From a phage: DNA of 64,000 bases. Each line of letters starts with the position of its first letter. Positions within the stretch are counted from its first letter, which is position 1. The notes under the pieces are model-generated. The model was not told the origin of the DNA, searched no databases, and worked only from the letters and a program-made list of their open reading frames with translations. A program made the position numbers and the translations under genes. The stretch lies in the sequence record PV946933.1; one strand, written 5' to 3'. This document shows, piece by piece, positions 1,131 to 63,436 of this stretch.

Positions 1131-1160
1131 GTTTACTTTTCCTCTTGACTGTGGTATAAT
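1131..1160 (+). promoter_or_regulatory. T4-type early promoter
   Basis: GTTTAC-N18-TATAAT; flanked by inverted repeat 1139-1151 / 1169-1181 whose downstream arm contains the RBS. Confidence 0.7.
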
Positions 1161-1187
1161 TTTTCTATCAGTTAAGAGGAGAATAAC

Positions 1188-1649
1188 ATGACTATCAACA
1201 CAGAAGTTTTTATCCGTCGAAATAAACTCCGTCGTCACTTTGAGTCGGAGTTTCGTCAAATTAACAATGAGATTCGTGAGGCATCAAAAGCAGCAGGAGT
1301 CTCATCGTTTCATCTAAAATATTCTCAACATCTTCTTGATCGTGCAATTCAACGGGAGATTGATGAGACATATGTTTTTGAATTATTCCATAAAATAAAA
1401 GACCATGTTTTAGAAGTTAATGAATTCCTGAGTATGCCTCCACGCCCTGACATTGACGAGGATTTTATTGATGGGGTTGAATATCGTCCTGGGCGTTTAG
1501 AAATCACTGATGGAAATCTTTGGCTTGGATTTACAGTTTGTAAACCTAATGCGAAGTTCAAAGACCCGTCACTTCAGTGCAGGATGGCAATTATCAACAG
1601 TCGTCGTTTACCAGGAAAGGCTTCTAAAGCAGTAATTAAAACTCAATGA
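1188..1649 (+). CDS. hypothetical basic protein, 153 aa; length and map position fit RegB endoribonuclease but not verified
   Basis: Early promoter 1131-1160 and RBS AAGAGGAG upstream; basic composition. Confidence 0.5.
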   Translation: MTINTEVFIRRNKLRRHFESEFRQINNEIREASKAAGVSSFHLKYSQHLLDRAIQREIDETYVFELFHKIKDHVLEVNEFLSMPPRPDIDEDFIDGVEYRPGRLEITDGNLWLGFTVCKPNAKFKDPSLQCRMAIINSRRLPGKASKAVIKTQ

Positions 1650-4913: not shown

Positions 4914-4917
4914 CATT

Positions 4918-4941
4918 AGTCTCCTTCGGGAGACTTTTTTC
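4918..4941 (+). terminator. intrinsic terminator
   Basis: AGTCTCC-TTCG-GGAGACT plus T6. Confidence 0.8.
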
Positions 4942-4950
4942 ATTTTACCG

Positions 4951-4980
4951 GTTTACTTTCCATTTGAGCTGTGATACTAT
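4951..4980 (+). promoter_or_regulatory. T4-type early promoter
   Basis: GTTTAC-N18-TACTAT. Confidence 0.65.
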
Positions 4981-5008
4981 ACAACCATCGGATAAAGAGG
5001 AGAACATC

Positions 5009-5197
5009 ATGAAAATTGAAGCACTTAATCAAGAAGGAAATATCTACGTCATCATTAATGGTGATTTTTTCGTCGACATGGATGAAGTTACCAGTGAAGA
5101 ACTTGAAGAACTTCTTAAGAAACGTTATGATATGTGTGATGAAGCTGCAACTCACATGGCGTGTGCAATATTCTCTCTTTCATATGTGGTAGAATAA
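5009..5197 (+). CDS. hypothetical small acidic protein (62 aa; track ORF 4964 trimmed to the ATG with RBS AAGAGGAG)
   Basis: Early promoter 4951-4980; strong RBS. Confidence 0.5.
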
Positions 5198-5400
5198 TGA
5201 TTAGTATCGAACAAGCAGATAAAATTAAAGAATTGGTAGCTTTAATTCGCAAAGCAGACGAGGAACTTAGTGACTTTGCTTGGTTTTCGGCAGGCATTGC
5301 AAATAAAGGCGCTGAAGAACTTGAAGCTAAAGTTGATAATGCTGTAGAAGCTTTAGATATGTTTCTTGATGAAATTATCGATCATAATACGAGAGTTTAA
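5197..5400 (+). CDS. hypothetical small helical protein (67 aa)
   Basis: TAATG overlap with upstream ORF; appears paralogous to the next two small ORFs. Confidence 0.45.
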   Translation: MISIEQADKIKELVALIRKADEELSDFAWFSAGIANKGAEELEAKVDNAVEALDMFLDEIIDHNTRV

Positions 5401-5402
5401 GT

Positions 5403-5597
5403 ATGCTGACATGCGAACAGTTTGAAAAAATCATTAAATTAGTACGTGATGTTGAAATAGATTCATATCAATTAGCAGTTGAGCATTGTGAAGGATATTC
5501 ATACGAAGGTATAGCAGCAGCTAAAAGGGATTTGGATAAATCTAAAGCTAAGTTAGTTCAATATCTTGAAATGATTAGGTGGAATAATGAAAACTGA
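5403..5597 (+). CDS. hypothetical small helical protein (64 aa)
   Basis: ORF; similar composition to neighbours. Confidence 0.45.
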   Translation: MLTCEQFEKIIKLVRDVEIDSYQLAVEHCEGYSYEGIAAAKRDLDKSKAKLVQYLEMIRWNNEN

Positions 5598-5760
5598 AAA
5601 GCAGATGTTTTTAATGAAGCTAATTGAAGAATATGCTAATGCAGTTTCTGACTATGAGTGTTCTTCTCGGGAAAGAGGTACAGCTTTCGCAAAGGAAGAA
5701 ATGAAAATCATGGTTGATGCTCACACAAAGCTTCAGAATTTTATTGAAAACGTCATTTAA
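5587..5760 (+). CDS. hypothetical small protein (57 aa, not in ORF track)
   Basis: ATG 5587 with RBS AGGTGG; overlaps upstream stop. Confidence 0.35.
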   Translation: MKTEKQMFLMKLIEEYANAVSDYECSSRERGTAFAKEEMKIMVDAHTKLQNFIENVI

Positions 5761-5762
5761 TG

Positions 5763-5792
5763 GTTTACAAGTTGGCAAGGTTATGGTATAGT
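5763..5792 (+). promoter_or_regulatory. T4-type early promoter inside 9-bp inverted repeat
   Basis: GTTTACAAG-N-TATAGT; arms GTTGGCAAG 5771-5779 and CTTGCCAAC 5796-5804. Confidence 0.65.
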
Positions 5793-5820
5793 AATCTTGC
5801 CAACTGCCAAGGAGAAGAGA

Positions 5821-5925
5821 ATGAAAGTTTTGTTTGTTGTGTATGTGATGATTCAATATAATTACCCAATGTTTACTTATAATCTGGTGAACAACATTAT
5901 TGATATTATTCAAAGGAGTATGTAA
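5821..5925 (+). CDS. possible hydrophobic micro-ORF (34 aa)
   Basis: Follows early promoter 5763-5792 and RBS AAGGAGAAG. Confidence 0.3.
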   Translation: MKVLFVVYVMIQYNYPMFTYNLVNNIIDIIQRSM

Positions 5926-5927
5926 TT

Positions 5928-6485
5928 GTGAGTGAGTCGAAGAGAATCAATATGAAACGATTAGTATTAGAAGTTAGTTCACTTTTTGGTGAATTGGCTA
6001 TAGAAAAAGTAAATAATATGTATCGTTTGACGCAAGAAGACGATATGCTATATTTTACGCCTAGTGAAATCATTCATTTAACCCAAATTGAAAATCCTTA
6101 TACTGATAAAATTGTAAGCATTAATGATGAGCATAAAATTCATTTTTATTCTTCATGCCCAGGATTTAATATTAAAAGTGAGTCAATGTGTTTATCAGTT
6201 ATTCATTGGGATAGTTTTATAGCTAAGATTAAATATTTTTATTATTCTAATGAAAGAAAACATAGTTTAAAATGGCTTAAAAATTGCAATGCTATTATTA
6301 CTAACGATTGCAATCAGAATGATGAAACTCTTTTAAATGTATCAAAATGTTATGAAGAAGGAGATGTCTTAACTATTCGTCAAATTGACGATTTTCGATC
6401 ACATATTGTCACATTTACCAAAGACGAAGCTATTGCGCTAAAGACTTATCTTGATTCTGTCATTCCAACTATGATTTCAAAGTGA
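5928..6485 (+). CDS. hypothetical protein (185 aa), paralog of 6492-7010
   Basis: Shared C-terminal motif (KDEAIALKTYLDSVIPTM vs KSEAEAMIKYLTTVTPSM); GTG start, or ATG at 5952. Confidence 0.55.
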   Translation: MSESKRINMKRLVLEVSSLFGELAIEKVNNMYRLTQEDDMLYFTPSEIIHLTQIENPYTDKIVSINDEHKIHFYSSCPGFNIKSESMCLSVIHWDSFIAKIKYFYYSNERKHSLKWLKNCNAIITNDCNQNDETLLNVSKCYEEGDVLTIRQIDDFRSHIVTFTKDEAIALKTYLDSVIPTMISK

Positions 6486-6491
6486 GGAAAT

Positions 6492-7010
6492 ATGTTTATT
6501 TCAAGTGAAAGTGGTTTAATTCGTGTTGAATTTAAAAATGACATCTTCCTTATTCAAGGAGATGATATTATTAAAATGAGTTATGACGAAATCAAGAAAA
6601 TTTGCCGTGCTCTTGAAAGTCATGGAAAAGTAAATGCTGTTATTGACATCGGTGATTTATGGGTGACACTTTATGAAGTATCCGAAGGATTTAACATTGA
6701 AGATGAAAATAACATCTTAGCTATTGATAAAAGAAGTGATTTGTTTGATGTATTAAAAGTTTATGAACAGTCAAACGGTGGAAGAAAAGCCGTATTGATT
6801 TATCAAAAACCACATTCATGTGGAACTGCTTCAATTATTTCAAATATTGAAGATGAAACTGATACTTATATGTGTGTTTTGAAAGCGGGCGGTGACCGTC
6901 ATCCGGATTTTATTTCTATTCGTCAAAACAATGGAGAAATTTCATTATCAAAATCAGAAGCTGAAGCTATGATTAAGTATTTAACAACTGTTACACCTTC
7001 AATGAAATGA
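6492..7010 (+). CDS. hypothetical protein (172 aa), paralog of 5928-6485
   Basis: See above. Confidence 0.55.
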   Translation: MFISSESGLIRVEFKNDIFLIQGDDIIKMSYDEIKKICRALESHGKVNAVIDIGDLWVTLYEVSEGFNIEDENNILAIDKRSDLFDVLKVYEQSNGGRKAVLIYQKPHSCGTASIISNIEDETDTYMCVLKAGGDRHPDFISIRQNNGEISLSKSEAEAMIKYLTTVTPSMK

Positions 7011-8489: not shown

Positions 8490-8514
8490 GGGAGCCTTCG
8501 GGCTCCCTTTTTTA
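8490..8514 (+). terminator. intrinsic terminator
   Basis: GGGAGCC-TTCG-GGCTCCC plus T6. Confidence 0.85.
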
Positions 8515-8520
8515 TTTCAA

Positions 8521-8604
8521 AAATTTTTCACAAAACGGTTTACAAGCATAAAGCTTTATGGTACTATACAACTATCAACTGATACAGATTTGGAGAATAA
8601 AATG
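8521..8604 (+). repeat. PeSL-like promoter-leader cassette, copy 1
   Basis: AAATTTTTCACAAAACGGTTTACA...TATGGTACTATACAACTATCAACTGATACAGATTTGGAGAATAAAATG; near-identical blocks at 34937-35025 and 63352-63436. Confidence 0.8.
8538..8567 (+). promoter_or_regulatory. T4-type early promoter (in PeSL copy 1)
   Basis: GTTTAC-N18-TACTAT. Confidence 0.7.
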
Positions 8605-9974: not shown

Positions 9975-10037
9975 TGGTTTACAAGACTGTTCCTCTGTGG
10001 TACTATACAACTATCAACTACGGAGGAACACAAAATG
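9966..10037 (+). repeat. PeSL-like cassette, partial copy 5
   Basis: GTTTACAAG...TGTGGTACTATACAACTATCAACTACGGAGGAAC then ATG. Confidence 0.6.
9976..10005 (+). promoter_or_regulatory. T4-type early promoter
   Basis: GTTTAC-N18-TACTAT; inverted repeat TGTTCCTC 9987-9994 / GAGGAACA 10022-10029 includes RBS. Confidence 0.65.
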
Positions 10038-11924: not shown

Positions 11925-12953
11925 ATGAAAACTCGTTCTCAAATTGAAGATATGGTTCGTACTGCCAGTGATACTCGTAATGTTATGACATTTTTGTGTG
12001 AAAATAATTTAGACCCTGATAAAGTTAATCGTGCTATTCATCACTTTAAATATCTGAACAGCAGCGAATGGGTGCGTAATTTTAGCGAAGCGGGGTATAT
12101 TACACAAATGACGGCTCGTGAGCAGCTCACCGATTTCTGTAAAACTATTGATTATAAAAATCCTCTATTTGTTCAAGGCGTTGGTCAAAGTAAGGTCGAT
12201 TTATCATCTGGATTTTTCAATCCAAATCATTATCGTATTGAATGGAGATTTATTGCTCTGTTCCGTAGACAATTAAAGCAAATTTTATCAACTGCGAGTC
12301 GATTAAAAGGTTCTGATATTAACTTAAAGAATCTGAAATTTGATGGTTATACTCTTCAGATGGAAGTAAGACCATTAAAAGAAAATAATAGAACTGCACG
12401 AATTAGCTTTAAACCTAATACAAAAAATTCTCTTTCAATTTGCGAATGCCTTAAATCGCAGTTGACAGAAGCATTTAAGTATATGGATGTTGTTGCCGCT
12501 GTTCAGTCTAAGATTTTACCTCGTTTTGAGCGATTTAAATTAGACACAACAACATATGAACTTGATATGATCGTTTCATTTAAATACGATTTTTTGAGAA
12601 AGGACGAAGTCCCGCAAGAGAAAAAGCAGGAAGTGCAAGATAACTTAAATTTAAATTTATCCAATTACTCATCAAACGATCCTAAATTTTGGATGTATAG
12701 CTCAGGTAATGAAGATGCATGGAAATTCAATAAAGTGAATTTTCTTCCTGTTGAAAATCCGAGTCTTAAACCTGTTGAAAAATGGCATGCAGATGCGATT
12801 GAGAAGTCTCTTAAAGCAGTAGATGATGAACTCGTTAAAGCAACTAATGAAATGTTAGAAGTTGAAAAGGCGCTAGAAAAAGCTCAAGAAAAAGTCAAAA
12901 ATCTCACGAAGCAACGTTCTAAACTGAACAATGCACTAAATGCACTGAACTAG
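11925..12953 (+). CDS. paralog family member 2 (342 aa)
   Basis: N-terminus MKTRSQIEDM; motif TAREQLTDFCK; C-terminal coiled coil. Confidence 0.55.
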   Translation: MKTRSQIEDMVRTASDTRNVMTFLCENNLDPDKVNRAIHHFKYLNSSEWVRNFSEAGYITQMTAREQLTDFCKTIDYKNPLFVQGVGQSKVDLSSGFFNPNHYRIEWRFIALFRRQLKQILSTASRLKGSDINLKNLKFDGYTLQMEVRPLKENNRTARISFKPNTKNSLSICECLKSQLTEAFKYMDVVAAVQSKILPRFERFKLDTTTYELDMIVSFKYDFLRKDEVPQEKKQEVQDNLNLNLSNYSSNDPKFWMYSSGNEDAWKFNKVNFLPVENPSLKPVEKWHADAIEKSLKAVDDELVKATNEMLEVEKALEKAQEKVKNLTKQRSKLNNALNALN

Positions 12954-12982
12954 TTTACTTTGCCACAAGGATGTGGTATAAT
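12953..12982 (+). promoter_or_regulatory. T4-type early promoter
   Basis: GTTTACTTTGCCACAAGGATGTGGTATAAT; same core as 59090-59119. Confidence 0.7.
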
Positions 12983-27054: not shown

Positions 27055-28733
27055 AGAATTTTAAACTAAACCGAGTTAGGTATCAAAATATAATGTCAGT
27101 AGGCGGAAATCCTATTGACATTCAACTAGATAAGGTTCAAAAAACTCTTATTACTGGACGAAATGGCGGTGGTAAGTCTACTATGTTAGAAGCCATCACA
27201 TTTGGGCTTTTTGGCAAGCCATTTCGTGATGTAAAGAAAGGTCAATTAATAAACAGCACAAATAAGAAAGAACTTTTAGTTGAACTGTGGATGGAATATG
27301 ATGAGAAAAAGTACTATATCAAAAGAGGACAAAAACCAAACGTTTTCGAAATCACCGTTAACGGTACACGTCTTAATGAATCTGCCAGCAGTAAAGATTT
27401 CCAAGCAGAATTTGAACAGCTTATCGGAATGTCATATGCCAGTTTCAAGCAGATTGTTGTCCTTGGTACAGCAGGGTATACCCCTTTCATGGGTTTGTCG
27501 ACCCCTGCGCGAAGAAAGCTTGTGGAAGACCTGCTTGAGGTAGGAACATTAGCTGAAATGGATAAGCTTAATAAAGCACTAATACGTGAATTAAATTCAC
27601 AAAACCAAGTGCTTGATGTTAAAAAAGATAGTATTATCCAACAAATTAAAATATATAATGATAACGTTGAACGCCAGAAAAAATTAACTGGTGATAACCT
27701 TACTCGTCTGCAGAATATGTATGATGATTTGGCGAAAGAAGCTAGAACGTTAAAATCGGAAATAGAAGAAGCTAATGAAAGATTAGTTAATATTGTTTTG
27801 GATGAAGACCCGACTGATGCATTTAATAAAATCGGTCAAGAAGCATTTTTAATTAAATCAAAAATTGACTCGTATAATAAAGTCATTAATATGTATCACG
27901 AAGGTGGATTATGTCCAACCTGTTTGTCACAATTAAGTTCCGGTGATAAAGTTGTTTCTAAAATTAAAGATAAAGTTTCTGAATGTACGCATTCATTTGA
28001 ACAGCTTTCAACGCATCGTGATAATTTAAAAGTTCTTGTTGATGAATACCGAGATAATATTAAAACCCAGCAGACGTTGGCGAATGATATTCGCAATAAA
28101 AAGCAATCCTTAATCACGACGGTAGATAAAGCTAAAAAAGTTAAAGCAGCTATAGAAAAAGCATCATCCGAGTTTATTGACCATGCTGATGAAATAGCAC
28201 TGCTTCAAGAAGAACTTGATAAAATTGTTAAGACAAAAACTAATTTAGTAATGGAAAAATACCATAGAGGAATTTTGACTGACATGCTCAAAGATTCTGG
28301 TATTAAAGGTGCTATTATTAAAAAGTACATTCCATTATTTAATAAGCAGATTAACCATTATCTTAAAATAATGGAAGCGGATTATGTGTTTACATTAGAT
28401 GAAGAATTTAATGAGACAATTAAATCCCGTGGTCGTGAAGATTTTAGTTATGCTTCATTTAGTGAAGGTGAAAAAGCACGAATCGATATTGCTCTTTTAT
28501 TTACTTGGCGTGATATTGCTTCTATCGTATCTGGTGTTAGTATTAGTACATTAATTCTTGATGAAGTGTTTGATGGGTCATTTGATGCCGAAGGTATTAA
28601 AGGTGTAGCGAATATTATAAATTCAATGAAAAATACTAATGTTTTTATAATTTCGCATAAAGACCATGACCCGCAAGAATATGGTCAGCATCTTCAAATG
28701 AAGAAAGTTGGTCGATTTACTGTAATGGTTTAA
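27051..28733 (+). CDS. 46: recombination ATPase subunit gp46 (Rad50/SbcC-like)
   Basis: 560 aa; Walker A GRNGGGKST; long coiled-coil middle with CPTC zinc hook; signature and Walker B near C-terminus; GTG start. Confidence 0.9.
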   Translation: MKNFKLNRVRYQNIMSVGGNPIDIQLDKVQKTLITGRNGGGKSTMLEAITFGLFGKPFRDVKKGQLINSTNKKELLVELWMEYDEKKYYIKRGQKPNVFEITVNGTRLNESASSKDFQAEFEQLIGMSYASFKQIVVLGTAGYTPFMGLSTPARRKLVEDLLEVGTLAEMDKLNKALIRELNSQNQVLDVKKDSIIQQIKIYNDNVERQKKLTGDNLTRLQNMYDDLAKEARTLKSEIEEANERLVNIVLDEDPTDAFNKIGQEAFLIKSKIDSYNKVINMYHEGGLCPTCLSQLSSGDKVVSKIKDKVSECTHSFEQLSTHRDNLKVLVDEYRDNIKTQQTLANDIRNKKQSLITTVDKAKKVKAAIEKASSEFIDHADEIALLQEELDKIVKTKTNLVMEKYHRGILTDMLKDSGIKGAIIKKYIPLFNKQINHYLKIMEADYVFTLDEEFNETIKSRGREDFSYASFSEGEKARIDIALLFTWRDIASIVSGVSISTLILDEVFDGSFDAEGIKGVANIINSMKNTNVFIISHKDHDPQEYGQHLQMKKVGRFTVMV

Positions 28734-34936: not shown

Positions 34937-35025
34937 AAAATTTTTTCACAAAACTGTTTACATCCCTGTTCTTCCATGGTACTATACAACTATCAACTAC
35001 TGATACGGATTTGGAGAATGAAATG
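34937..35025 (+). repeat. PeSL-like promoter-leader cassette, copy 2
   Basis: Same conserved upstream block, GTTTAC, GGTACTATACAACTATCAACT, GATACGGATTTGGAGAAT and ATG. Confidence 0.8.
34956..34985 (+). promoter_or_regulatory. T4-type early promoter (in PeSL copy 2)
   Basis: GTTTAC-N18-TACTAT. Confidence 0.7.
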
Positions 35026-39632: not shown

Positions 39633-41060
39633 GTGGTAGAAATTATTCTTTCTCATCTCATATTTGATCAAGCTTATTTTTCAAAAGTTTGGCCATATAT
39701 GGATTCAGAATATTTTGAAAGTGGTCCAGCTAAAAATACGTTCAAATTAATTAAATCTCATGTTAATGAGTACCATAGCGTTCCATCTATTAATGCGTTA
39801 AATGTTGCATTAGAAAATAGTTCATTTACTGAAACAGAATATTCTGGTGTAAAAACACTTATTTCAAAACTGGCTGATTCTCCGGAAGACCACAGTTGGT
39901 TAGTAAAAGAAACGGAAAAATATGTTCAGCAAAGGGCGATGTTTAATGCTACGTCTAAAATAATTGAAATTCAAACTAATGCTGAACTTCCTCCGGAAAA
40001 ACGAAATAAGAAAATGCCGGATGTTGGTGCTATTCCTGACATCATGCGCCAAGCATTATCAATTTCATTTGATAGTTACGTTGGTCATGATTGGATGGAT
40101 GACTATGAAGCACGTTGGCTATCTTATATGAATAAAGCCCGTAAGGTTCCATTTAAACTCAAAATTCTAAATAAAATTACTAAAGGCGGAGCTGAGACTG
40201 GAACACTGAACGTTTTAATGGCTGGTGTTAACGTTGGTAAGTCATTAGGATTATGTTCATTAGCAGCAGATTATTTACAGCTCGGACATAATGTTCTTTA
40301 CATTTCCATGGAAATGGCAGAAGAAGTCTGTGCTAAGCGTATTGATGCTAATATGCTTGATGTTTCTCTTGATGACATTGATGATGGACATATTTCTTAC
40401 GCTGAATATAAAGGAAAAATGGAAAAATGGCGTGAGAAATCTACTCTCGGTCGTTTAATCGTTAAACAGTATCCTACTGGTGGAGCAGACGCTAATACAT
40501 TTCGTTCTCTTTTGAACGAATTGAAGCTCAAGAAGAATTTTGTTCCAACAATCATTATTGTCGACTATCTAGGTATTTGTAAATCTTGCCGCATCAGAGT
40601 TTACTCAGAAAATAGTTACACAACTGTTAAAGCTATCGCAGAGGAATTGCGTGCTCTGGCTGTTGAAACCGAAACTGTTCTTTGGACTGCAGCGCAGGTT
40701 GGTAAGCAAGCTTGGGATTCTTCTGATGTTAACATGAGCGATATTGCAGAATCCGCCGGTCTTCCAGCAACAGCTGATTTTATGCTTGCGGTCATTGAAA
40801 CCGAGGAGTTAGCAGCTGCTGAACAACAACTCATTAAGCAAATCAAATCACGATATGGTGATAAGAATAAATGGAATAAGTTTTTGATGGGTGTTCAAAA
40901 AGGAAATCAAAAATGGGTAGAAATTGAGCAAGATTCTACTCCAACTGAAGTGAACGAAGTAGCAGGTTCACAGCAGATTCAGGCTGAACAGAACCGCTAT
41001 CAAAGAAATGAATCGGCTCGAGCTCAGTTAGATGCTTTGGCAAATGAATTAAAATTTTAG
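39633..41060 (+). CDS. 41: replicative helicase gp41 (DnaB-like)
   Basis: 475 aa; GTG start; Walker A GVNVGKS. Confidence 0.93.
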   Translation: MVEIILSHLIFDQAYFSKVWPYMDSEYFESGPAKNTFKLIKSHVNEYHSVPSINALNVALENSSFTETEYSGVKTLISKLADSPEDHSWLVKETEKYVQQRAMFNATSKIIEIQTNAELPPEKRNKKMPDVGAIPDIMRQALSISFDSYVGHDWMDDYEARWLSYMNKARKVPFKLKILNKITKGGAETGTLNVLMAGVNVGKSLGLCSLAADYLQLGHNVLYISMEMAEEVCAKRIDANMLDVSLDDIDDGHISYAEYKGKMEKWREKSTLGRLIVKQYPTGGADANTFRSLLNELKLKKNFVPTIIIVDYLGICKSCRIRVYSENSYTTVKAIAEELRALAVETETVLWTAAQVGKQAWDSSDVNMSDIAESAGLPATADFMLAVIETEELAAAEQQLIKQIKSRYGDKNKWNKFLMGVQKGNQKWVEIEQDSTPTEVNEVAGSQQIQAEQNRYQRNESARAQLDALANELKF

Positions 41061-41089
41061 TTTACAAGCTGACAAGACTATGGTATAGT
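41060..41089 (+). promoter_or_regulatory. T4-type early promoter inside 9-bp inverted repeat
   Basis: GTTTACAAG; arms ACAAGACTA 41072-41080 / TAGTCTTGT 41089-41097. Confidence 0.65.
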
Positions 41090-41118
41090 AGTCTTGTTGG
41101 TTAAATGAGGAGATTTTT

Positions 41119-41301
41119 ATGGAATTGGTAAAAGTAGTTTTTATGGGGTGGTTTAAGAATGAAAGCATGTTTACTAAAGAAATCACAATGATGAAAGATG
41201 ACGTTCAATGGGCTACTACTCAATATGCTGAAGTTAATAAAGCATTAGTTAAAGCTTTCATTGATGACAAGAAAGTATGTGAAGTGGATTGCCGAGGATA
41301 A
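41119..41301 (+). CDS. dmd: Dmd, antitoxin against RnlA/LsoA
   Basis: 60 aa ORF directly after gene 41, preceded by early promoter; length and position match T4 Dmd. Confidence 0.6.
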   Translation: MELVKVVFMGWFKNESMFTKEITMMKDDVQWATTQYAEVNKALVKAFIDDKKVCEVDCRG

Positions 41302-41524: not shown

Positions 41525-41547
41525 TTATTGATGCTAGTAAAATAGTA

Positions 41548-41577
41548 GTTTACAAGCTGATAGAGTTGTGTTATAGT
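41548..41577 (+). promoter_or_regulatory. T4-type early promoter inside 9-bp inverted repeat
   Basis: GTTTACAAG; arms GCTGATAGA 41556-41564 / TCTATCAGC 41581-41589. Confidence 0.65.
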
Positions 41578-41609
41578 AATTCTATCAGCTAATCGCGGAG
41601 AAAAGAAAA

Positions 41610-41864
41610 ATGATGCTAGTTAATAGAGAATATCAGTTTAAATCAGAAGAAGATTTGGAAAAATTCGCAAGTGGTTGTGAACTGAATAGACGCACAGCTA
41701 AAGTCATAGGATTAAAACCCTTTACAGTTCTAGATTGTGAAGTTTCTAAATTCCGCAGAGGGTGTTCTATTAGCGGTCATGCTCTGGTTGATGGGAACAC
41801 ATTTTTCTTTGTTTTTAGCGTCAGAGAACTTTTATTGATTAACGAACTTGAGGAAATAAAATAG
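41610..41864 (+). CDS. hypothetical protein (84 aa)
   Basis: Early promoter 41548-41577 upstream. Confidence 0.45.
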   Translation: MMLVNREYQFKSEEDLEKFASGCELNRRTAKVIGLKPFTVLDCEVSKFRRGCSISGHALVDGNTFFFVFSVRELLLINELEEIK

Positions 41865-44012: not shown

Positions 44013-44030
44013 GCAAATTTTACAAAATTT

Positions 44031-44060
44031 GTTTACTTTCTCAGCTTGCTGTGGTATTAT
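44031..44060 (+). promoter_or_regulatory. T4-type early promoter
   Basis: GTTTAC-N18-TATTAT; inverted repeat CTCAGC 44040-44045 / GCTGAG 44071-44076 includes RBS. Confidence 0.65.
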
Positions 44061-44085
44061 AAAATAAACTGCTGAGGATAATATA

Positions 44086-44523
44086 ATGATTAATAAAATT
44101 GTACATGAAATGGCTTTAAACGGAGATTCATATAAAATATCTGCCGTAGTTGAAAATTTCATACTTAATAAAGTAAAAGAATATTTCACTGATTGTTCAG
44201 TTAGTTATCAAGAAAAAATGGTTTTAATCGACGATACTGAAAAATCAAATAATTTGTTTTGTTCGAATTTTACAACTAAGAAGCGTACTAGAAGATTTGA
44301 TATTGTCATTTCTCGCAATGGTAAAAAGCATATAATTGAAATCAAACACCAAGTTGGTGGAGGTACAGCCATTGATTCGGTTGGAATATATCTGGAAGAT
44401 AAAGATAAATTAAAAGAATACACAAAAACTGAAAATCCTGTGTCATTGATGATATTAGATTTTTTGCCATGCGGATATTATCCGCGTAATAAGTGGACAA
44501 AAAGAGAATCATTTACTGATTGA
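44086..44523 (+). CDS. hypothetical protein with PD-(D/E)xK-like motif (145 aa)
   Basis: RFDIVI...HIIEIKHQ resembles the D...E-x-K nuclease core; early promoter upstream. Confidence 0.45.
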   Translation: MINKIVHEMALNGDSYKISAVVENFILNKVKEYFTDCSVSYQEKMVLIDDTEKSNNLFCSNFTTKKRTRRFDIVISRNGKKHIIEIKHQVGGGTAIDSVGIYLEDKDKLKEYTKTENPVSLMILDFLPCGYYPRNKWTKRESFTD

Positions 44524-46053: not shown

Positions 46054-46061
46054 TATAAATA
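46054..46061 (+). promoter_or_regulatory. late promoter of soc
   Basis: TATAAATA about 30 nt upstream of soc ATG. Confidence 0.65.
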
Positions 46062-46091
46062 ATCATGTAATTTAAATAAAAGGAGAATTAC

Positions 46092-46337
46092 ATGGCTAGT
46101 ACTCGCGGTTATGTTAATATCAAAACGTTTGAGCAGAAATTAGATGGAAATAAGAAAATTGAAGGAAAGGAAATTTCTGTAGCTTTCCCTCTTTATTCTG
46201 ACGTTCACAAAATTTCTGGCGCTCATTACCAGACATTCCCTTCAGAAAAAGCAGCATATACTACTGTATATGAAGAAAATCAACGTGCTGCGTGGATTGC
46301 TGCAAACGAAGATTTGTGGAAAGTAACTGGCGGTTAA
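46092..46337 (+). CDS. soc: small outer capsid protein Soc
   Basis: 81 aa, recalled as near-identical to T4 Soc; late promoter TATAAATA at 46054-46061. Confidence 0.88.
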   Translation: MASTRGYVNIKTFEQKLDGNKKIEGKEISVAFPLYSDVHKISGAHYQTFPSEKAAYTTVYEENQRAAWIAANEDLWKVTGG

Positions 46338-46344
46338 TAATTCA

Positions 46345-46370
46345 AGGACTCCTTCGGGAGTCCTTTTTTC
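46345..46370 (+). terminator. intrinsic terminator after soc
   Basis: GGACTCC-TTCG-GGAGTCC plus T6. Confidence 0.85.
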
Positions 46371-46379
46371 ATTTAAACG

Positions 46380-48493: not shown

Positions 48494-48523
48494 GTTTACT
48501 TTCCTTCCTAACAATGATATGAT
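48494..48523 (+). promoter_or_regulatory. T4-type early promoter upstream of modB
   Basis: GTTTAC-N18-TATGAT. Confidence 0.55.
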
Positions 48524-48549
48524 AGCTTCTGAAGTATATGGAGGCTATC

Positions 48550-49173
48550 ATGATTATTAATCTTGCAGATGTTGAACAGTTATCTATAAAAGCTGAAAGT
48601 GTTGATTTTCAATATGATATGTATAAAAAGGTCTGTGAAAAATTTACTGACTTTGAACAGTCAGTTCTTTGGCAATGTATGGAAGCCAAAAAGAATGAAG
48701 CTCTTCATCGGCAGTTGAATAAAATCGTTAAAAAGCATTTAACTGAATCACCTTATCAGTTATATCGTGGTATATCAAAATCGACAAAAGAACTCATTAA
48801 AGATTTACAAGTTGGAGAAGTGTTTTCAACGAACAGAGTAGATTCATTTACTACTAGTTTGCACACAGCATGCGGTTTTTCTTATGCTGAATATTTCACT
48901 GAAATAATATTTCGCTTAAAAACTGATAAAGCTTTTAATTACTCTGACCATATCAGCGATATTATACTTTCTTCTCCTAATACTGAGTTTAAGTATACAT
49001 ATGAAGATACTGATGGATTAGATTCAGAACGTACTGATAACTTAATGATGATTGTGCGTGAACAAGAATGGATGATTCCAATTGGAAAGTATAAAATAAC
49101 TTCTATTTCAAAAGAAAAATTACACGATTCATTTGGAACATTTAAAGTGTATGATATTGAGGTAGTTGAATGA
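48550..49173 (+). CDS. modB: ADP-ribosyltransferase ModB
   Basis: 207 aa from ATG 48550; ART motifs R (YRGIS), S-T-S-like, E-x-E (EQEWMIP). Confidence 0.8.
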   Translation: MIINLADVEQLSIKAESVDFQYDMYKKVCEKFTDFEQSVLWQCMEAKKNEALHRQLNKIVKKHLTESPYQLYRGISKSTKELIKDLQVGEVFSTNRVDSFTTSLHTACGFSYAEYFTEIIFRLKTDKAFNYSDHISDIILSSPNTEFKYTYEDTDGLDSERTDNLMMIVREQEWMIPIGKYKITSISKEKLHDSFGTFKVYDIEVVE

Positions 49174-50955: not shown

Positions 50956-52271
50956 CATTTGATGATTTGACTGAAGGCCAGAAAAATGCCTTTAACATCG
51001 TTATGAGGGCTATCAAAGAAAAGAAACATCATGTAACTATTAATGGACCTGCTGGTACTGGTAAGACTACTCTTACTAAGTTCATCATTGAAGCCTTAAT
51101 ATCTACGGGCGAAACTGGCATTATTTTAGCAGCTCCTACTCATGCAGCTAAAAAGATTCTTTCAAAACTGTCAGGGAAAGAAGCGAGTACTATTCACAGT
51201 ATTCTTAAAATTAACCCAGTAACATACGAAGAAAACGTTCTTTTTGAGCAAAAAGAAGTACCGGATTTGGCTAAATGCAGAGTATTAATCTGCGACGAAG
51301 TATCAATGTATGATAGAAAGCTATTTAAAATTCTGCTTTCAACTATTCCACCTTGGTGTACTATAATTGGAATAGGCGATAATAAGCAAATTAGACCTGT
51401 TGACCCAGGAGAAAACACTGCTTATATCAGTCCATTCTTTACGCACAAAGATTTTTATCAGTGTGAACTCACTGAAGTTAAACGCAGTAATGCTCCTATT
51501 ATTGATGTAGCTACTGATGTTCGCAACGGTAAGTGGATTTATGATAAAGTTGTTGACGGGCATGGAGTACGTGGATTTACTGGTGATACCGCTTTACGCG
51601 ATTTTATGGTAAATTATTTTTCAATCGTAAAATCACTAGATGATTTGTTTGAAAATCGTGTAATGGCATTTACGAATAAATCTGTTGACAAGTTAAATAG
51701 CATTATTCGTAAAAAGATTTTTGAAACTGATAAAGATTTTATTGTCGGTGAAATTATTGTAATGCAGGAACCATTAATTAAAACATATAAAATTGATGGA
51801 AAGCCTGTGTCAGAAATTATTTTTAATAACGGACAATTAGTTCGTATTATAGAAGCAGAATATACATCGACGTTTGTTAAAGCTCGTGGTGTTTCTGGGG
51901 AATATCTAATTCGTCATTGGGATTTAACAGTAGAAACTTACGGCGATGATGAATATTATCGTGAAAAGATTAAAATAATTTCATCTGATGAAGAGCTGTA
52001 TAAGTTTAACTTATTTTTAGGTAAAACGGCAGAAACTTATAAAAATTGGAATAAAGGTGGAAAAGCTCCGTGGAGCGATTTTTGGGATGCTAAATCACAG
52101 TTTAGTAAAGTGAAAGCACTTCCCGCATCAACATTCCATAAAGCTCAGGGTATGTCTGTAGACCGTGCTTTTATCTATACACCTTGCATTCATTATGCAG
52201 ATGCTGAACTAGCTCAGCAGCTTCTTTATGTTGGTGTCACTCGTGGTCGTTATGATGTGTTTTATGTGTGA
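50952..52271 (+). CDS. dda: SF1 DNA helicase Dda
   Basis: 439 aa; Walker A GPAGTGKTT; Walker B LICDEVSM. Confidence 0.92.
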   Translation: MTFDDLTEGQKNAFNIVMRAIKEKKHHVTINGPAGTGKTTLTKFIIEALISTGETGIILAAPTHAAKKILSKLSGKEASTIHSILKINPVTYEENVLFEQKEVPDLAKCRVLICDEVSMYDRKLFKILLSTIPPWCTIIGIGDNKQIRPVDPGENTAYISPFFTHKDFYQCELTEVKRSNAPIIDVATDVRNGKWIYDKVVDGHGVRGFTGDTALRDFMVNYFSIVKSLDDLFENRVMAFTNKSVDKLNSIIRKKIFETDKDFIVGEIIVMQEPLIKTYKIDGKPVSEIIFNNGQLVRIIEAEYTSTFVKARGVSGEYLIRHWDLTVETYGDDEYYREKIKIISSDEELYKFNLFLGKTAETYKNWNKGGKAPWSDFWDAKSQFSKVKALPASTFHKAQGMSVDRAFIYTPCIHYADAELAQQLLYVGVTRGRYDVFYV

Positions 52272-53694: not shown

Positions 53695-53724
53695 GTTTAC
53701 TTCCTCGGTTAGTTGTGGTATTAT
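53695..53724 (+). promoter_or_regulatory. T4-type early promoter
   Basis: GTTTAC-N18-TATTAT. Confidence 0.65.
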
Positions 53725-53751
53725 AACACCATAGCTACTGAGGATAATAAA

Positions 53752-54252
53752 ATGAAAATTTATCGTGTTGAATCATCGTTTAGTATTCTTGATTATGAAG
53801 ATGCTATAACAATACGTCGAAATCTTTGTGTTCAAATAACACCGTACAGGAGTATAATAGATTCATGGAGCGAAGAGTGGCTATTACACGTAGGTTATGA
53901 CAGACCTAATTTTATGCATCATAGCGATAATAATAAAAGAATTCCTTTACCACACGAAGATAAACTATTAGTTAAAAACGCTAATATAGTAATTAATACT
54001 AAGTTCAAGAAAGATTATGTTGGAGTAGAATATCATATTCCAGGATGGTTTATAGCTCTTTATCATTTTGCTTTCGCTAGTGAATATGATATGATGAGAT
54101 GGTTCACACGAGAAGAGCGGGAAGAATTATCTTCTAAAGGATTTTATCTCGCTGTATACGAAGTTCCTGAAGATGAAGTTATCATTGGCGGGCACCAAGT
54201 AATGTTCCGCAAATCGCATGCTGAACTCATAGATTTTATTGAAATGAGATAA
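53752..54252 (+). CDS. hypothetical protein (166 aa from internal ATG)
   Basis: Early promoter 53695-53724 and RBS GAGGATAA. Confidence 0.45.
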   Translation: MKIYRVESSFSILDYEDAITIRRNLCVQITPYRSIIDSWSEEWLLHVGYDRPNFMHHSDNNKRIPLPHEDKLLVKNANIVINTKFKKDYVGVEYHIPGWFIALYHFAFASEYDMMRWFTREEREELSSKGFYLAVYEVPEDEVIIGGHQVMFRKSHAELIDFIEMR

Positions 54253-54799: not shown

Positions 54800-54829
54800 G
54801 TTTACAAACTCTTGGGACCAGAGTATAAT
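54800..54829 (+). promoter_or_regulatory. T4-type early promoter inside inverted repeat
   Basis: GTTTAC-N18-TATAAT; arms GGGACC 54814-54819 / GGTCCC 54830-54835. Confidence 0.65.
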
Positions 54830-54872
54830 GGTCCCTGGAGTATAAAATCTTTTTAACAAGTGAGAGATAACT

Positions 54873-55371: not shown

Positions 55372-55470
55372 ATTTAAAATTTTTCATAAAACTATATACA
55401 TCAGTAGTTGATTATGGTACTATATCAATATCAACTACTGATACAGAAAAACAACTTGGAGAATAAAATG
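55372..55470 (+). repeat. PeSL-like cassette, divergent copy 4
   Basis: TATGGTACTATATCAATATCAACTACTGATACAG...CTTGGAGAATAAAATG; -35 diverged. Confidence 0.6.
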
Positions 55471-57272: not shown

Positions 57273-59090
57273 ATGATTAAGAATGAAATTAAAATTCTGA
57301 GCGATATTGAACATATCAAAAAGCGTAGTGGCATGTATATTGGCTCTTCTGCTAATGAAATGCATGAGCGCTTTCTGTTTGGTAAATGGGAAAGTGTTCA
57401 GTATGTACCTGGTCTTGTTAAGCTTATTGATGAAATTATCGATAACTCAGTAGATGAAGGTATTCGTACTAAGTTTAAATTCGCAAATAAAATTAATGTT
57501 ACCATTAAAAATAATCAGGTAACAGTTGAAGATAACGGTCGTGGTATTCCACAAGCGATGGTTAAAACACCTACGGGTGAAGAAATTCCTGGTCCTGTTG
57601 CTGCCTGGACTATTCCAAAAGCAGGCGGTAACTTTGGTGATGATAAAGAACGCGTCACTGGCGGTATGAACGGTGTTGGTTCTAGTTTAACTAACATTTT
57701 TTCTGTGATGTTTGTCGGTGAAACTGGTGATGGCCAAAATAATATTGTAGTTCGTTGTTCAAACGGCATGGAAAATAAATCATGGGAAACTATTCCTGGA
57801 AAATGGAAAGGAACTCGTGTTACTTTCATTCCCGATTTTATGTCATTTGAAACTAATGAGCTGTCTCAAGTTTATCTTGACATTACACTGGACCGTCTCC
57901 AGACACTTGCAGTAGTTTATCCTGATATTCAATTTACCTTTAATGGTAAAAAGGTTCAGGGTAATTTTAAGAAATATGCACGTCAATATGATGAGCATGC
58001 TATCGTTCAAGAACAAGAAAACTGTTCTATTGCGGTCGGTCGTTCACCGGATGGTTTTCGTCAATTAACATACGTCAATAACATTCATACTAAGAATGGT
58101 GGCCATCACATTGACTGCGTTATGGATGATATTTGTGAAGACCTTATTCCACAAATCAAACGTAAGTTCAAAATTGATGTAACTAAAGCACGTGTTAAAG
58201 AATGTTTGACTATCGTTATGTTTGTTCGTGATATGAAAAACATGCGATTTGACTCTCAAACTAAAGAGCGTCTGACTTCTCCATTTGGTGAAATTCGTAG
58301 TCATATTCAGCTTGATGCCAAAAAGATTTCACGTGCTATTTTAAATAATGAAGCAATTTTAATGCCAATCATTGAAGCTGCCCTTGCTCGTAAATTGGCG
58401 GCAGAAAAAGCAGCAGAAACTAAAGCAGCTAAAAAGGCTTCTAAAGCTAAGGTTCATAAACATATTAAAGCGAATCTTTGTGGTAAAGATGCTGATACTA
58501 CTCTTTTCTTGACTGAGGGTGATTCTGCTATTGGATATCTTATTGATGTTCGTGATAAAGAACTTCATGGTGGTTATCCATTGCGTGGTAAAGTTCTCAA
58601 CAGTTGGGGTATGTCATATGCTGATATGCTTAAAAACAAAGAACTGTTTGATATTTGCGCAATCACTGGATTAGTTCTTGGTGAAAAAGCTGAAAACTTG
58701 AATTATCATAATATTGCTATTATGACTGATGCTGACCATGATGGTCTAGGAAGCATTTATCCTTCTCTGCTCGGATTTTTTAGTAATTGGCCAGAATTGT
58801 TTGAACAAGGAAGAATTCGCTTTGTCAAAACTCCTGTAATCATCGCTCAGGTCGGTAAAAAACAAGAATGGTTTTATACAGTCGCTGAATATGAGAGTGC
58901 TAAAGATGCTCTACCTAAACATAGCATCCGTTATATTAAGGGACTTGGCTCTTTGGAAAAATCTGAGTATCGTGAGATGATTCAAAATCCAGTATATGAT
59001 GTTGTTAAACTTCCTGAGAATTGGAAGGAGCTTTTTGAAATGCTCATGGGAGATAATGCTGACCTTCGTAAAGAATGGATGAGCCAATAG
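57273..59090 (+). CDS. 39: DNA topoisomerase II large subunit, unsplit (GyrB-like ATPase plus TOPRIM)
   Basis: 605 aa; GHKL ATPase motifs and TOPRIM region (LTEGDSA...DADHDG) in one continuous ORF. Confidence 0.9.
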   Translation: MIKNEIKILSDIEHIKKRSGMYIGSSANEMHERFLFGKWESVQYVPGLVKLIDEIIDNSVDEGIRTKFKFANKINVTIKNNQVTVEDNGRGIPQAMVKTPTGEEIPGPVAAWTIPKAGGNFGDDKERVTGGMNGVGSSLTNIFSVMFVGETGDGQNNIVVRCSNGMENKSWETIPGKWKGTRVTFIPDFMSFETNELSQVYLDITLDRLQTLAVVYPDIQFTFNGKKVQGNFKKYARQYDEHAIVQEQENCSIAVGRSPDGFRQLTYVNNIHTKNGGHHIDCVMDDICEDLIPQIKRKFKIDVTKARVKECLTIVMFVRDMKNMRFDSQTKERLTSPFGEIRSHIQLDAKKISRAILNNEAILMPIIEAALARKLAAEKAAETKAAKKASKAKVHKHIKANLCGKDADTTLFLTEGDSAIGYLIDVRDKELHGGYPLRGKVLNSWGMSYADMLKNKELFDICAITGLVLGEKAENLNYHNIAIMTDADHDGLGSIYPSLLGFFSNWPELFEQGRIRFVKTPVIIAQVGKKQEWFYTVAEYESAKDALPKHSIRYIKGLGSLEKSEYREMIQNPVYDVVKLPENWKELFEMLMGDNADLRKEWMSQ

Positions 59091-59119
59091 TTTACTTTAC
59101 CACAAGGATGTGGTATAAT
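59090..59119 (+). promoter_or_regulatory. T4-type early promoter
   Basis: GTTTACTTTACCACAAGGATGTGGTATAAT. Confidence 0.7.
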
Positions 59120-59358: not shown

Positions 59359-61536
59359 ATGATTATCACCACTGAAAAAGAAACAATTCTTGGTAATGGT
59401 TCTAAATCAAAAGCATTTAGCATCACAGCATCTCCTAAAGTATTTAAAATTCTATCATCTGATTTGTATACAAACAAGATTCGCGCAGTAGTCCGTGAAT
59501 TGATTACCAACATGATTGATGCCCATGCTCTTAATGGAAATCCTGAAAAATTTATCATTCAAGTTCCAGGACGATTAGACCCACGATTTGTTTGTCGAGA
59601 CTTTGGTCCAGGTATGAGTGATTTTGATATTCAAGGTGATGATAATTCTCCTGGGCTGTATAATTCATACTTTAGTTCATCTAAGGCTGAATCTAACGAT
59701 TTCATTGGTGGATTTGGTTTAGGTTCTAAATCTCCGTTTAGTTATACTGATACGTTTAGTATTACTTCGTACCATAAAGGTGAAATTCGCGGTTATGTAG
59801 CTTACATGGATGGTGACGGTCCGCAGATTAAACCTACATTCGTAAAAGAAATGGGTCCAAACGATAAAACTGGTATTGAAATCGTAGTTCCAGTTGAAGA
59901 AAAAGACTTTAGAAACTTTGCTTATGAAGTTTCTTATATCATGCGACCATTCAAAGATTTAGCTATCATTAACGGTCTTGACCGCGAAATTGATTATTTT
60001 CCGGATTTTGATGACTATTACGGTGTAAATCCAGAAAGATACTGGCCAGATCGTGGTGGATTGTATGCTATCTATGGCGGCATTGTTTATCCTATCGAAG
60101 GTGTTATTAGAGATCGTAACTGGTTAAGCATCCGCAATGAAGTGAATTATATTAAGTTTCCAATGGGTTCACTTGATATTGCTCCATCGCGTGAGGCTCT
60201 TTCACTAGATGATCGTACTCGTAAAAATATTATTGAGCGTGTTAAAGAGCTCAGTGAGAAGGCATTTAATGAAGATGTAAAACGATTTAAAGAATCTACA
60301 TCTCCTCGTCATACATACCGTGAATTGATGAAGATGGGGTATTCTGCTCGAGATTATATGATTAGTAATTCGGTCAAATTCACGACTAAAAATCTGTCAT
60401 ATAAGAAGATGCAGAGCATGTTTGAACCTGACAGTAAGTTATGCAATGCAGGGGTTGTGTATGAAGTAAATCTTTACCCTCGACTGAAACGCATTAAGCA
60501 AAGTCATGAAACTTCAGCCGTTGCGTCAAGCTATCGTTTGTTTGGTATTAACACAACAAAAATTAATATCGTCATTGATAATATTAAAAATCGTGTTAAT
60601 ATTATCCGTGGATTAGCACGTGCATTAGATGATAGTGAATTTAATAACACTTTAAATATTCATCACAATGAGCGTCTTCTGTTTATTAATCCGGAAGTAG
60701 AATCACAGATTGATTTACTCCCTGATATTATGGCAATGTTTGAAAGTGATGAAGTTAACATTCATTATTTGTCAGAAATTGAAGCTTTAGTTAAAAGTTA
60801 TATTCCAAAGGCAGTAAAAAGTACAGCTCCTCGTCCTAAAACTGCCACTGCATTTAAGTTTGAAATTAAAGACGGGCGCTGGGAAAAAGAGGAATTGTTT
60901 ACGCTCACATCAGAAGCAGATGAAATTACTGGTTATGTAGCATACATGCATCGTTCTGATATTTTCTCTATGGATGGTACTACATCGCTTTGTCATCCAT
61001 CTACGAATATTTTGATTCGTATGGCTAATCTTATTGGCATTAATGAATTTTATGTTATTCGTCCACTTTTACAGAAAAAGGTAAAAGAACTCGGTCAGTG
61101 TCAATGTATTTTTGAAACTCTGCGTGATTTATATGTAGATGCTTTTGATGATGTAGATTATGATAAGTATGTAGGTTATTCAAGTTCAGCTAAACGATAT
61201 ATTGATAAAATTATCAAGTATCCTGAGTTAGATTTTATGATGAAGTACTTCAGTGTAGATGAAGTTTCCGAAGAATATACTCGCCTTGGTAATATGGTTA
61301 GTTCATTGCAGGGTATATATTTCAACGGTGGAAAAGGTACCATCGGTCATGACATCTGGACAGTAACTAATCTTTTTGAAACACTATCATATAATGCTTC
61401 AAAAAACAGTGATAAAATGGTTGCTGAGTTTACCAAGAAATTCCGTATTGTTTCCGATTTCATCGGTTATCGCAACTCTTTAAGTGATGATGAAGTTTCC
61501 CAAATCGCTAAAACTATGAAGGCCCTTGCGGCCTAA
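59359..61536 (+). CDS. rIIA: rIIA
   Basis: 725 aa; GHKL-like ATPase N-terminus; length matches T4 rIIA. Confidence 0.88.
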
Positions 61537-63353: not shown

Positions 63354-63436
63354 AAATTTTCACAAAACGGTTTACATACCACAAGGACTGTGGTACTATA
63401 CAACTATCAACTGATACGGATTTGGAGAATAAAATG
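63352..63436 (+). repeat. PeSL-like promoter-leader cassette, copy 3
   Basis: Same as copies 1 and 2. Confidence 0.8.
63370..63399 (+). promoter_or_regulatory. T4-type early promoter (in PeSL copy 3)
   Basis: GTTTAC-N18-TACTAT. Confidence 0.7.

Follow-up and report, generated by a model that had tools for sequence, protein, structure and literature searches.

Early promoters of T4-type phages can be combined with stem-loops in composite sites known as promoter early stem-loop (PeSL) elements (Arbiol et al, 2010, PMC2839356; Comeau et al, 2014, PMC4122927). These were described for RB49 and phi1, where the stem lies mostly between the -35 and -10 hexamers or over the -10 hexamer, and later for PST/T4 and nt-1/KVP40 (PMC2839356, PMC4122927). 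Here we describe hairpins around the -10 box of sigma-70-type early promoters in a 64,000-nt stretch of phage DNA (a stretch of sequence record PV946933.1; hereafter the window). The architecture itself is already published as PeSL and is not new; what appears to be new is a functional reading, based on pairing of the Shine-Dalgarno (SD) sequence and on the promoter from which a transcript originates, that would be testable and fairly general.

Like PeSL elements, the window sites combine an AT-rich upstream region, a strong sigma-70-like early promoter, a stem-loop (those of PeSL being drawn with G-T pairs), and an SD sequence with a start codon. In both, a stable stem-loop lies in or over the promoter, and small open reading frames (ORFs) are inserted, deleted or replaced between relatives (two cases examined). 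The PST/T4 PeSL stems, however, were described just upstream of the promoter, whereas those reported here are centred on the -10 box, and the RB49 stems are G/C tracts, whereas the window stems are AT-rich and variable. The interpretation also differs, since the PeSL papers propose terminators or attenuators and recombination sites, and mention neither translation nor an SD sequence as a stem arm (PMC2839356, PMC4122927).

A second described system is formed by the T4 genes e, soc, 49 and I-TevI, whose hairpins sequester the ribosome site and contain a promoter; these internal promoters are late (gp55) or middle/late and delay translation of the genes within early units (PMC3014915). One of the two classes of window site defined below (class b, with the SD sequence in the 3' arm) resembles them in that the SD and/or AUG is paired in the long transcript (for class b, as predicted) and in that an internal promoter within the 5' part yields a separate transcript lacking the 5' arm (here from inferred start sites). 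The window sites differ in having a sigma-70 early promoter inside, with the 5' arm in its spacer, such that the earliest transcripts would alone be translated. Among the window cases only soc carries a late-class internal promoter (TATAAATA). At this gene (46054-46094) the late promoter is followed by a 9-bp repeat, CATGTAATT/AATTACATG, that pairs the soc start codon within a longer outer helix, and the arrangement was used as a positive control for the masking concept.

Bacterial promoter-coupled terminators also use one sequence twice, their stem-loop DNA overlapping the promoter of the next unit: the stem supplies the -35 element, the T-tract forms the spacer and the -10 element follows, with 3' ends ~10 bp upstream of the start (Fletcher et al, 2026, preprint, 10.64898/2026.08.19.745784). 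The window sites, in contrast, have no T-tract; their stem excludes the -35 hexamer and their loop encloses the -10 box. In the literature we found no paper that proposes masking of the ribosome site at early promoters, including for the hairpin at regB, the gene of an endoribonuclease; synthesis of its product is tightly limited, and the hairpin is not mentioned in a review (PMC3014915).

Stem-loops around the -10 box

The window belongs to a T4-like phage (Tequatrovirus): its positions 5000-7000 share 93-98% identity with more than 500 Tequatrovirus genomes (megablast). Its orientation is antiparallel to the standard T4 map, extending from ~63.9 kb of T4 downwards beyond the end of rIIA, and the early genes therefore lie on its + strand. 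The T4-type, sigma-70-like early-promoter pattern (GTTTAC, 18 nt, TAnnnT) gave ~20 strong matches on this strand, with A/T-rich sequence upstream of the promoters and an SD sequence and start codon within ~50 nt 3' of each. At P mobD.2 the -35 and -10 signals are annotated in the T4 record U76612 (T4 orthologue at 57990). At nine of ~21 sigma-70-type early promoters, the spacer between the -35 and -10 hexamers has its complement 3' of the -10 box. The promoters named below take the names of their T4 counterparts (by window position: P regB, 1131; P mobD.2, 5763; P nrdC.8, 9977; P dmd, 41060; P modB, 48494; P motB.2, 53695; P motB, 54800).

5763..5792, + strand: P mobD.2 promoter, -35 GTTTAC at 5763-5768, -10 TATAGT at 5787-5792
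5770..5805, + strand: class-a hairpin of P mobD.2, arms 5770-5784 / 5791-5805, loop GGTATA
1131..1190, + strand: P regB with class-b hairpin, arms 1137-1151 (spacer) / 1169-1183, z = -6.2
9977..10037, + strand: P nrdC.8 with class-b hairpin, arms 9988-10001 / 10017-10030, z = -6.0
41060..41121, + strand: P dmd with class-a hairpin, arms 41067-41081 / 41088-41102, z = -5.0
41548..41612, + strand: promoter of an 84-aa ORF absent from T4, with class-a hairpin, arms 41555-41569 / 41576-41590, z = -4.3
48494..48552, + strand: P modB with hairpin, arms 48518-48531 (-10 hexamer and start region) / 48539-48552 (SD and AUG), -15.4 kcal/mol, z = -2.8
53695..53754, + strand: P motB.2 with bulged class-b hairpin, arms 53702-53719 / 53728-53744, -23.7 kcal/mol, z = -5.8
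54800..54841, + strand: P motB with two-part hairpin, 54808-54812 and 54814-54820 pairing with 54829-54835 and 54837-54841, z = -4.5
55394..55442, + strand: promoter 5' of a cef-like gene, 13-bp perfect repeat 55400-55412 / 55430-55442, z = -4.7
44040..44076, + strand: weak SD-pairing repeat at promoter 44031, 6 bp Watson-Crick or 8 bp with G.U, z = -1.6, not significant alone

The RNA helices at the nine sites comprise 12-15 bp including G.U pairs (17 bp with a bulge at P motB.2), with energies of -15 to -24 kcal/mol and z-scores of -2.8 to -6.2, and at every hairpin site an SD sequence and ATG follow 20-50 nt past the -10 box. The P mobD.2 hairpin has 15 bp including 2 G.U pairs (-21.7 kcal/mol, z = -5.6), and both its SD (5810-5814) and its ATG (5821) lie outside the structure. 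At P dmd, where 4 of the 15 pairs are G.U, the SD follows the hairpin by 5 nt (ATG 41119). When G.U pairs are allowed, all three GTTTACAAG-type hairpins form 15-bp stems in an identical register with a 6-nt loop. At P motB the -10 TATAAT occupies the loop and the SD is far downstream of the hairpin. The 3' arm includes the SD GAGGAG at P regB (-10 TATAAT 1155-1160 in the loop; ATG 1188), the SD GGAGG at P nrdC.8 (ATG 10035) and the SD GAGGA at P motB.2 (-10 box in the loop; ATG 53752), while the own leader of P modB is unstructured. The promoter at 55394-55442 has a degenerate -35 (ATATAC), a -10 box in the loop (TACTAT, 55418-55423) and an ATG at 55468; its repeat, ATCAGTAGTTGAT/ATCAACTACTGAT, is the longest perfect inverted repeat of the window, and the arm at 55430-55442 is a 'ATCAACTAC' motif found after the -10 box in several other promoters. 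The sense strand folded more stably than the antisense strand at all seven window sites compared.

Several of these repeats had been named in an initial annotation of the window, and all the arms that it listed are present in the sequence, though their extents needed revision. The 9-bp repeat at 41072-41080/41089-41097 was correct as described; that at P mobD.2 is 10 bp rather than 9 (5770-5779/5796-5805), and the one placed at 41556-41589 occupies 41555-41564/41581-41590 with 10 Watson-Crick pairs. The arms given at 54814-54835 form a 7-bp helix (54814-54820/54829-54835) to which an outer 5-bp helix is added. The SD-containing repeat at 1139-1151/1169-1181 extends to 1137-1151/1169-1183 (15 bp including 2 G.U), and the one at 9987-9994/10022-10029 exists with coordinates off by one (9988-9995/10023-10030; 8 bp Watson-Crick, 14 bp with G.U). 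The 6-bp SD-pairing arms at 44040-44045/44071-44076 are in place but not individually significant. The hairpins at 55400-55412/55430-55442, P motB.2 (53702-53744) and P modB (48518-48552) had not been listed.

The initial annotation had also cautioned that 9-bp repeats are expected a handful of times by chance in DNA of this length. This was fair: first-order Markov simulations gave 12.1 +/- 3.1 perfect inverted repeats of at least 9 bp (loop 3-30) for the whole window. The observed number was nevertheless 25, and three of these fall in the early-promoter core, which makes up ~1% of the window, so that the repeats are more frequent there than expected. In a further control each spacer was paired with the downstream region of another promoter, which keeps positional composition (arm swap). 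Helices of at least 14 bp enclosing the -10 box occurred at 5 of 20 promoters, against 0.05 expected from arm swaps and 0.02 from random positions, and RNA duplex energies of -16 kcal/mol or better at 7 of 20, against 0.6-0.8 expected. Dinucleotide shuffling gave z-scores of -4.3 to -6.2 at seven sites, -4.7 and -2.8 at two extra sites and ~0 at repeat-free promoters. A chance origin of the promoter hairpins was ruled out by these swap, random-position, shuffle and simulation controls.

The same excess was found in other genera, where duplexes of -14 kcal/mol or better numbered 5, 3 and 3, against 1.0, 0.73 and 0.67 expected from swap controls. We assembled 63 promoters from four genera (Tequatrovirus, Mosigvirus, Dhakavirus and Karamvirus) and scanned them, in an unbiased way, for all helices of at least 8 bp within +/-100 nt. 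The midpoints of 22 of the 85 helices lay within 0 to +10 of the start of the -10 box, against 2-5 per 10-nt bin elsewhere. No such hairpins were found at the middle promoters (MotA box) of the window, and the window gave no matches to Rfam families.

Some further repeats and motifs were noted. Several of the perfect repeats are intragenic, for example those at 28330-28376, 51669-51713 and 60577-60606 (11 bp each). A small hairpin wholly within the -35/-10 spacer, CCACA-AGGA(C)-TGTGG, is present in the promoters at 12953-12982, 59090-59119 and 63370-63399, and a Dhakavirus promoter has ATCCA-AGGA-TGGAT at the equivalent position; judged by their sequences, these appear to correspond to the PeSL subclass located between -35 and -10. 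Beyond the window, the promoter 5' of ipII at T4 65799 has a 13-bp perfect repeat, CCTAGAATTGTGA/TCACAATTCTAGG, around its -10 TATATT, and the phenomenon thus extends into the internal-protein locus. Many promoters share a conserved motif after the -10 box, ACAACTATCAACT (window 8565-8585, 10004-10020, 34983-35003 and 63397-63415) and, in Mosigvirus, Dhakavirus and Karamvirus, AGACCTATCAAC; it spans the start site together with the bases transcribed first and is frequently used as the 3' arm.

Hairpin geometry and ribosome-site accessibility

The hairpins fall into two geometries, which share a 5' arm within the spacer, at about -18 to -3 from the start of the -10 box. In class a (P mobD.2, P dmd and promoter 41548; more loosely P motB and the 55400 site) the 3' arm begins within the -10 box or immediately 3' of it (+4 to +18) and stops before the SD, and the centre of symmetry lies at the upstream edge of the -10 box. 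In class b the 3' arm, at +14 to +29, includes the SD (P regB, P nrdC.8, P motB.2) or, at P modB, both SD and AUG; the loops are 15-17 nt long.

At a sigma-70 promoter, transcription starts ~7 nt past the -10 hexamer. Because of this spacing, the mRNA made by the embedded promoter would lack the 5' arm, which fills the -35/-10 spacer of a strong early promoter, and would begin with an unstructured leader. With the -10 box in the loop and the 3' arm downstream, only RNA arriving from a putative upstream promoter would hold both arms and fold the hairpin, and on this point the geometry proposed in the initial annotation is sound. A slightly better than even case can be made that the sites are composite promoter/stem-loop (PeSL) elements that fold only in read-through RNA, with class b masking the ribosome site and class a providing a boundary structure.

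Folding predictions for the two kinds of transcript bear on this. For class b, the share of the SD-AUG region predicted to be unpaired was 0.71, 0.87 and 0.68 in the own leaders and 0.18, 0.31 and 0.30 in the read-through RNAs; the own leaders fold at 0 to -1.4 kcal/mol. At P regB, nrdC.8, motB.2 and modB, the SD or the SD and AUG would be masked in read-through RNA. Since the 3' arm is the SD itself, the ribosome site of the read-through RNA would therefore be closed and the gene would be translated essentially from its own early promoter alone. Synthesis would thereby be tied to the immediate-early period, and dosage would be independent of upstream transcription. Such a translational effect is suggested by the predicted accessibilities, and confinement to its own immediate-early transcripts fits the tightly limited synthesis of RegB.

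Class a behaves differently. The SD is outside the helix at 5770-5805, 41067-41102, 41555-41590, 54808-54841 and 55400-55442, and at the first four of these predicted SD accessibility is unchanged between the two transcripts (0.47/0.51, 0.39/0.39, 0.86/0.86, 0.42/0.49). The occlusion of the start region by read-through hairpins that had been proposed for all sites is thus borne out, as a fall in predicted accessibility, where the 3' arm is the SD, but not at the 5770-5805, 41072, 41556 and 54814 sites, where the hairpin ends 4-30 nt ahead of the SD; at 5770-5805 the mechanism is therefore inapplicable. It also follows that no one RNA mechanism covers all sites. On read-through RNA, class-a hairpins may most plausibly mark an intercistronic boundary, for example by stopping 3' exonucleases or RNase E scanning, or by acting as a pause or attenuation signal; as DNA, they might also offer a short homology or palindrome for cassette shuffling.

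The original PeSL proposal, that the stem-loops are terminators or attenuators of upstream RNA polymerase and restrict the extent to which transcription builds up along arrays of early promoters, has experimental backing: when an RB49 PeSL stem-loop was inserted between a promoter and lacZ, the fall in expression was about as large as with rrnB T1 (PMC2839356). In the cross-genus set, moreover, a separate intrinsic terminator was found in the 70 nt upstream of none of the 19 hairpin promoters but of 7 of the other 44 (Fisher p = 0.09, a trend), such that the hairpin could replace a terminator; the same trend is consistent with read-through RNA arriving at hairpin promoters. The sequences themselves speak against termination. 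No U-tract follows any of the nine window hairpins, whose 3' arms continue with A/G-rich sequence (GCCAAGGAG, AAATGAGG, AATCGCGG, TAACATG etc.), the stems are AT-rich with G.U pairs, and the class-b loops span 15-17 nt, whereas true terminators in the window have a GC-rich stem, a UUCG loop and a T-run. Nor does termination account for the fact that the 3' arm is systematically the SD, with flanks that covary. We therefore regard termination as an improbable main function of these hairpins.

An intrinsic-terminator scan of the + strand gave 6 terminator-like sites, none at the hairpins. Canonical terminators (GC-rich stem, UUCG tetraloop, T-run) lie at ~4915-4945, 8500-8530 and 46344-46372, directly 5' of the promoters at 4951, 8538 and 46380, none of which has a strong embedded hairpin.

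Conservation and covariation

IMG/VR provided only 5 Dmd loci, and the comparison between phages was therefore based on the phage GenBank collection. Within the T4-like phages, pair 6 of the P mobD.2 stem is A-T in 18 records (T4-type), G.T in 293 (the majority, including a T2 record) and G-C in 25 (window type), and the pair-breaking A.C was not found among 492 records. At P dmd, the window has G.U at pair 5-11, where T4 has G-C and one IMG/VR contig (L009) has A-U; a second change in this contig converts an A-U pair to G.U.

Hairpins of the same geometry are found in Mosigvirus, Dhakavirus and Karamvirus, where the arms have unrelated sequences (TTGGTAGGACTAT/GTAGTCCTACCAA; ATGGGCTCAT/ATGAGCCCAT; TTCCTCCAAG/CTTGGAGGAA; ATCTCCGTTTG/CAAACGGAGAT). 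The Dhakavirus orthologue of P nrdC.8 has the arms CTCCGGTAG/CTACTGGAG, and the arms of P motB-type promoters covary from GGGACCA/TGGTCCC in T4 to GAGAGC/GCTCTC in Mosigvirus and GAGGAC/GTCCTC in Dhakavirus. Complementarity is thus kept while arm sequence changes, as had been noticed between copies in the window, and this holds between orthologues and between genera as well.

At P regB the hairpin between spacer and SD is kept in 7 of 10 lineages, and the arm beside the SD core differs each time (CUUGACUG/CAGUUAAG, CUAGUUG/CAACUAG, UGUAG/CUACA). Across the 10 lineages, matched arms had a mean energy of -15.7 kcal/mol, against -10.7 kcal/mol for cross-lineage combinations (permutation p < 5e-5). 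Orthologous promoters thus keep complementarity at most regB loci, but not in the three lineages without the hairpin.

An anti-SD motif was present in the first 12 nt of the spacer at 19 of the 63 promoters, against a background of 4.6% (p = 3e-11). In this subset matched arms again paired better than swapped ones (-16.0 against -11.1 kcal/mol, permutation p < 2e-4), and complementarity therefore exceeds a generic SD/anti-SD match. A single consensus structure for all 63 promoters was rejected, as the register differs between subfamilies, and for this reason pair counts were confined to the class-a subfamily. When 11 class-a promoters were aligned without gaps, 95.8% of cells were paired, against 84.4% after shuffling and 23-65% with the partner slid, and 8 of 15 pairs had changed on both sides; these promoters were chosen for having a hairpin, which makes the count supporting rather than independent evidence. 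The structures, their enrichment, position, conservation and covariation are all direct observations.

Covariation of this kind might arise without function, as a mutational by-product of promoter-cassette duplication combined with quasi-palindrome (template-switch) correction that keeps the arms complementary. Many of the promoters are clearly paralogous cassettes, and the correction of imperfect palindromes from a template is a recognized source of mutations that was first described in T4 rII. A by-product would not be expected, however, to give a sharp positional peak on the -10 box across four genera or an enriched anti-SD motif, and the regB orthologues of 7 lineages keep the hairpin with unrelated non-SD arm sequence. 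Moreover, the dominant P mobD.2 haplotype is imperfect as DNA (G.T), which shows no drive to a perfect palindrome. This explanation is, in our judgement, very improbable.

Alternatively, the repeats could act as DNA, either as cruciform- or hairpin-prone sites and short homologies for the shuffling of cassettes, or as a supercoil-sensitive switch by which the -10 box is exposed or inactivated. This would be in keeping with the Mosigvirus, Dhakavirus and Karamvirus stems, which are mostly perfect palindromes of 10-14 bp, with the class-a centres of symmetry at the upstream edge of the -10 box, and with signs of exchange at the promoters themselves: a promoter + ORF cassette present in the window and in one IMG/VR contig (L008) is absent from T4, homology to T4 breaks at promoter 44031, and in the record of one Shigella phage the P mobD.2 hairpin has its loop inverted. 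Yet recombination requires a conserved promoter core alone rather than a palindrome, and the arm sequences vary from site to site, leaving no common protein site. A role as DNA also leaves unexplained why the 3' arm is so frequently the SD, which is an RNA signal, and sits poorly with stems rich in G.T pairs (P dmd, 4 in 15; P mobD.2, where G.T is the commonest haplotype and A.C was never seen). The asymmetry between G.T and A.C was considered as a discriminator of RNA from DNA and set aside as not decisive: it is 7:0 in the window but 13:6 overall, with a background G.T fraction of 0.55, and reaches significance in the window alone, not overall. We think it unlikely that the repeats work primarily as DNA.

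The polymorphic cassettes were characterized as follows. An early promoter and an 84-aa ORF occupy 41527-41864, between gene 61.4 and sp; the cassette is absent from T4 and from four IMG/VR contigs and present in one (L008), its ends fall in the upstream/-35 portions of two promoters, a pattern like that of PeSL-type shuffling, and the ORF matches phrog_2980 ('goF mRNA metabolism modulator'). At 44018-44523, homology to T4 stops ~13 nt ahead of promoter 44031, and the 145-aa ORF 3' of this promoter, not in the corresponding T4 region, matches phrog_8706 and has sub-threshold Pfam matches only, to the restriction-endonuclease families DpnII, BanI and HSDR_N. In the Shigella phage vb_GEC_SH_GT (L023), the loop and inner stem of the orthologue of 5781-5796 are inverted (TATGGTATAGTA to TACTATACCATA), and the -10 box is lost as a result. 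Either the segment between the arms has truly flipped or the change arose in assembly, the record being a 'partial genome'.

Transcript origin as a possible signal

The preferred reading, of composite elements whose hairpins form only in read-through RNA, has to be weighed against several observations. Outside Tequatrovirus the stems are mostly perfect palindromes, and together with the weak overall G.T/A.C asymmetry (13:6) this may be compatible with a role at the level of DNA. One RB49 stem-loop assayed in a transcriptional fusion had terminator-like activity (PMC2839356). The anti-SD motif is fixed just past the -35 hexamer and could serve the promoter itself, and templated, quasi-palindrome mutation can mimic compensatory change. 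To these are added the unchanged predicted SD accessibility of class a, the three regB lineages without a hairpin and an association with missing terminators that is a trend only (p = 0.09).

The contrast between read-through and own leaders that had been anticipated for all sites was thus predicted for the class with the SD in the 3' arm and not for the other, and a broader proposal can be put forward tentatively. About one-third of Tevenvirinae early promoters would have an anti-SD sequence in the spacer, as in the four genera compared, and at these, translation might depend on which promoter made the mRNA: own immediate-early transcripts would be translated, and read-through (delayed-early/middle) RNA would be silent, with the regB endoribonuclease, in seven genera, among the genes so controlled and the non-SD hairpins forming a second RNA device that senses origin. 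On balance we hold this general form to be possible but doubtful.

T4 serves as the reference for the timing of gene expression in phages, and the abrupt stop in the production of numerous early proteins is only partly explained. If SD-pairing spacers work as predicted, many early genes would be translated from the transcripts of their own promoter alone, which would explain why strong early promoters are repeated before individual small genes in long transcription units. For regB, this would be a third control, besides promoter shut-off and self-cleavage of the regB SD. PeSL elements would then be sensors of transcript origin too, besides terminators or recombination sites. In practical terms, they would be compact insulators reusable in synthetic operons, and would have to be respected when T4-like phages are engineered. 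For the phages themselves, they would constitute a general, so far unrecognised layer of the distinction between immediate-early and delayed-early expression and of the rapid shut-off of early protein synthesis.

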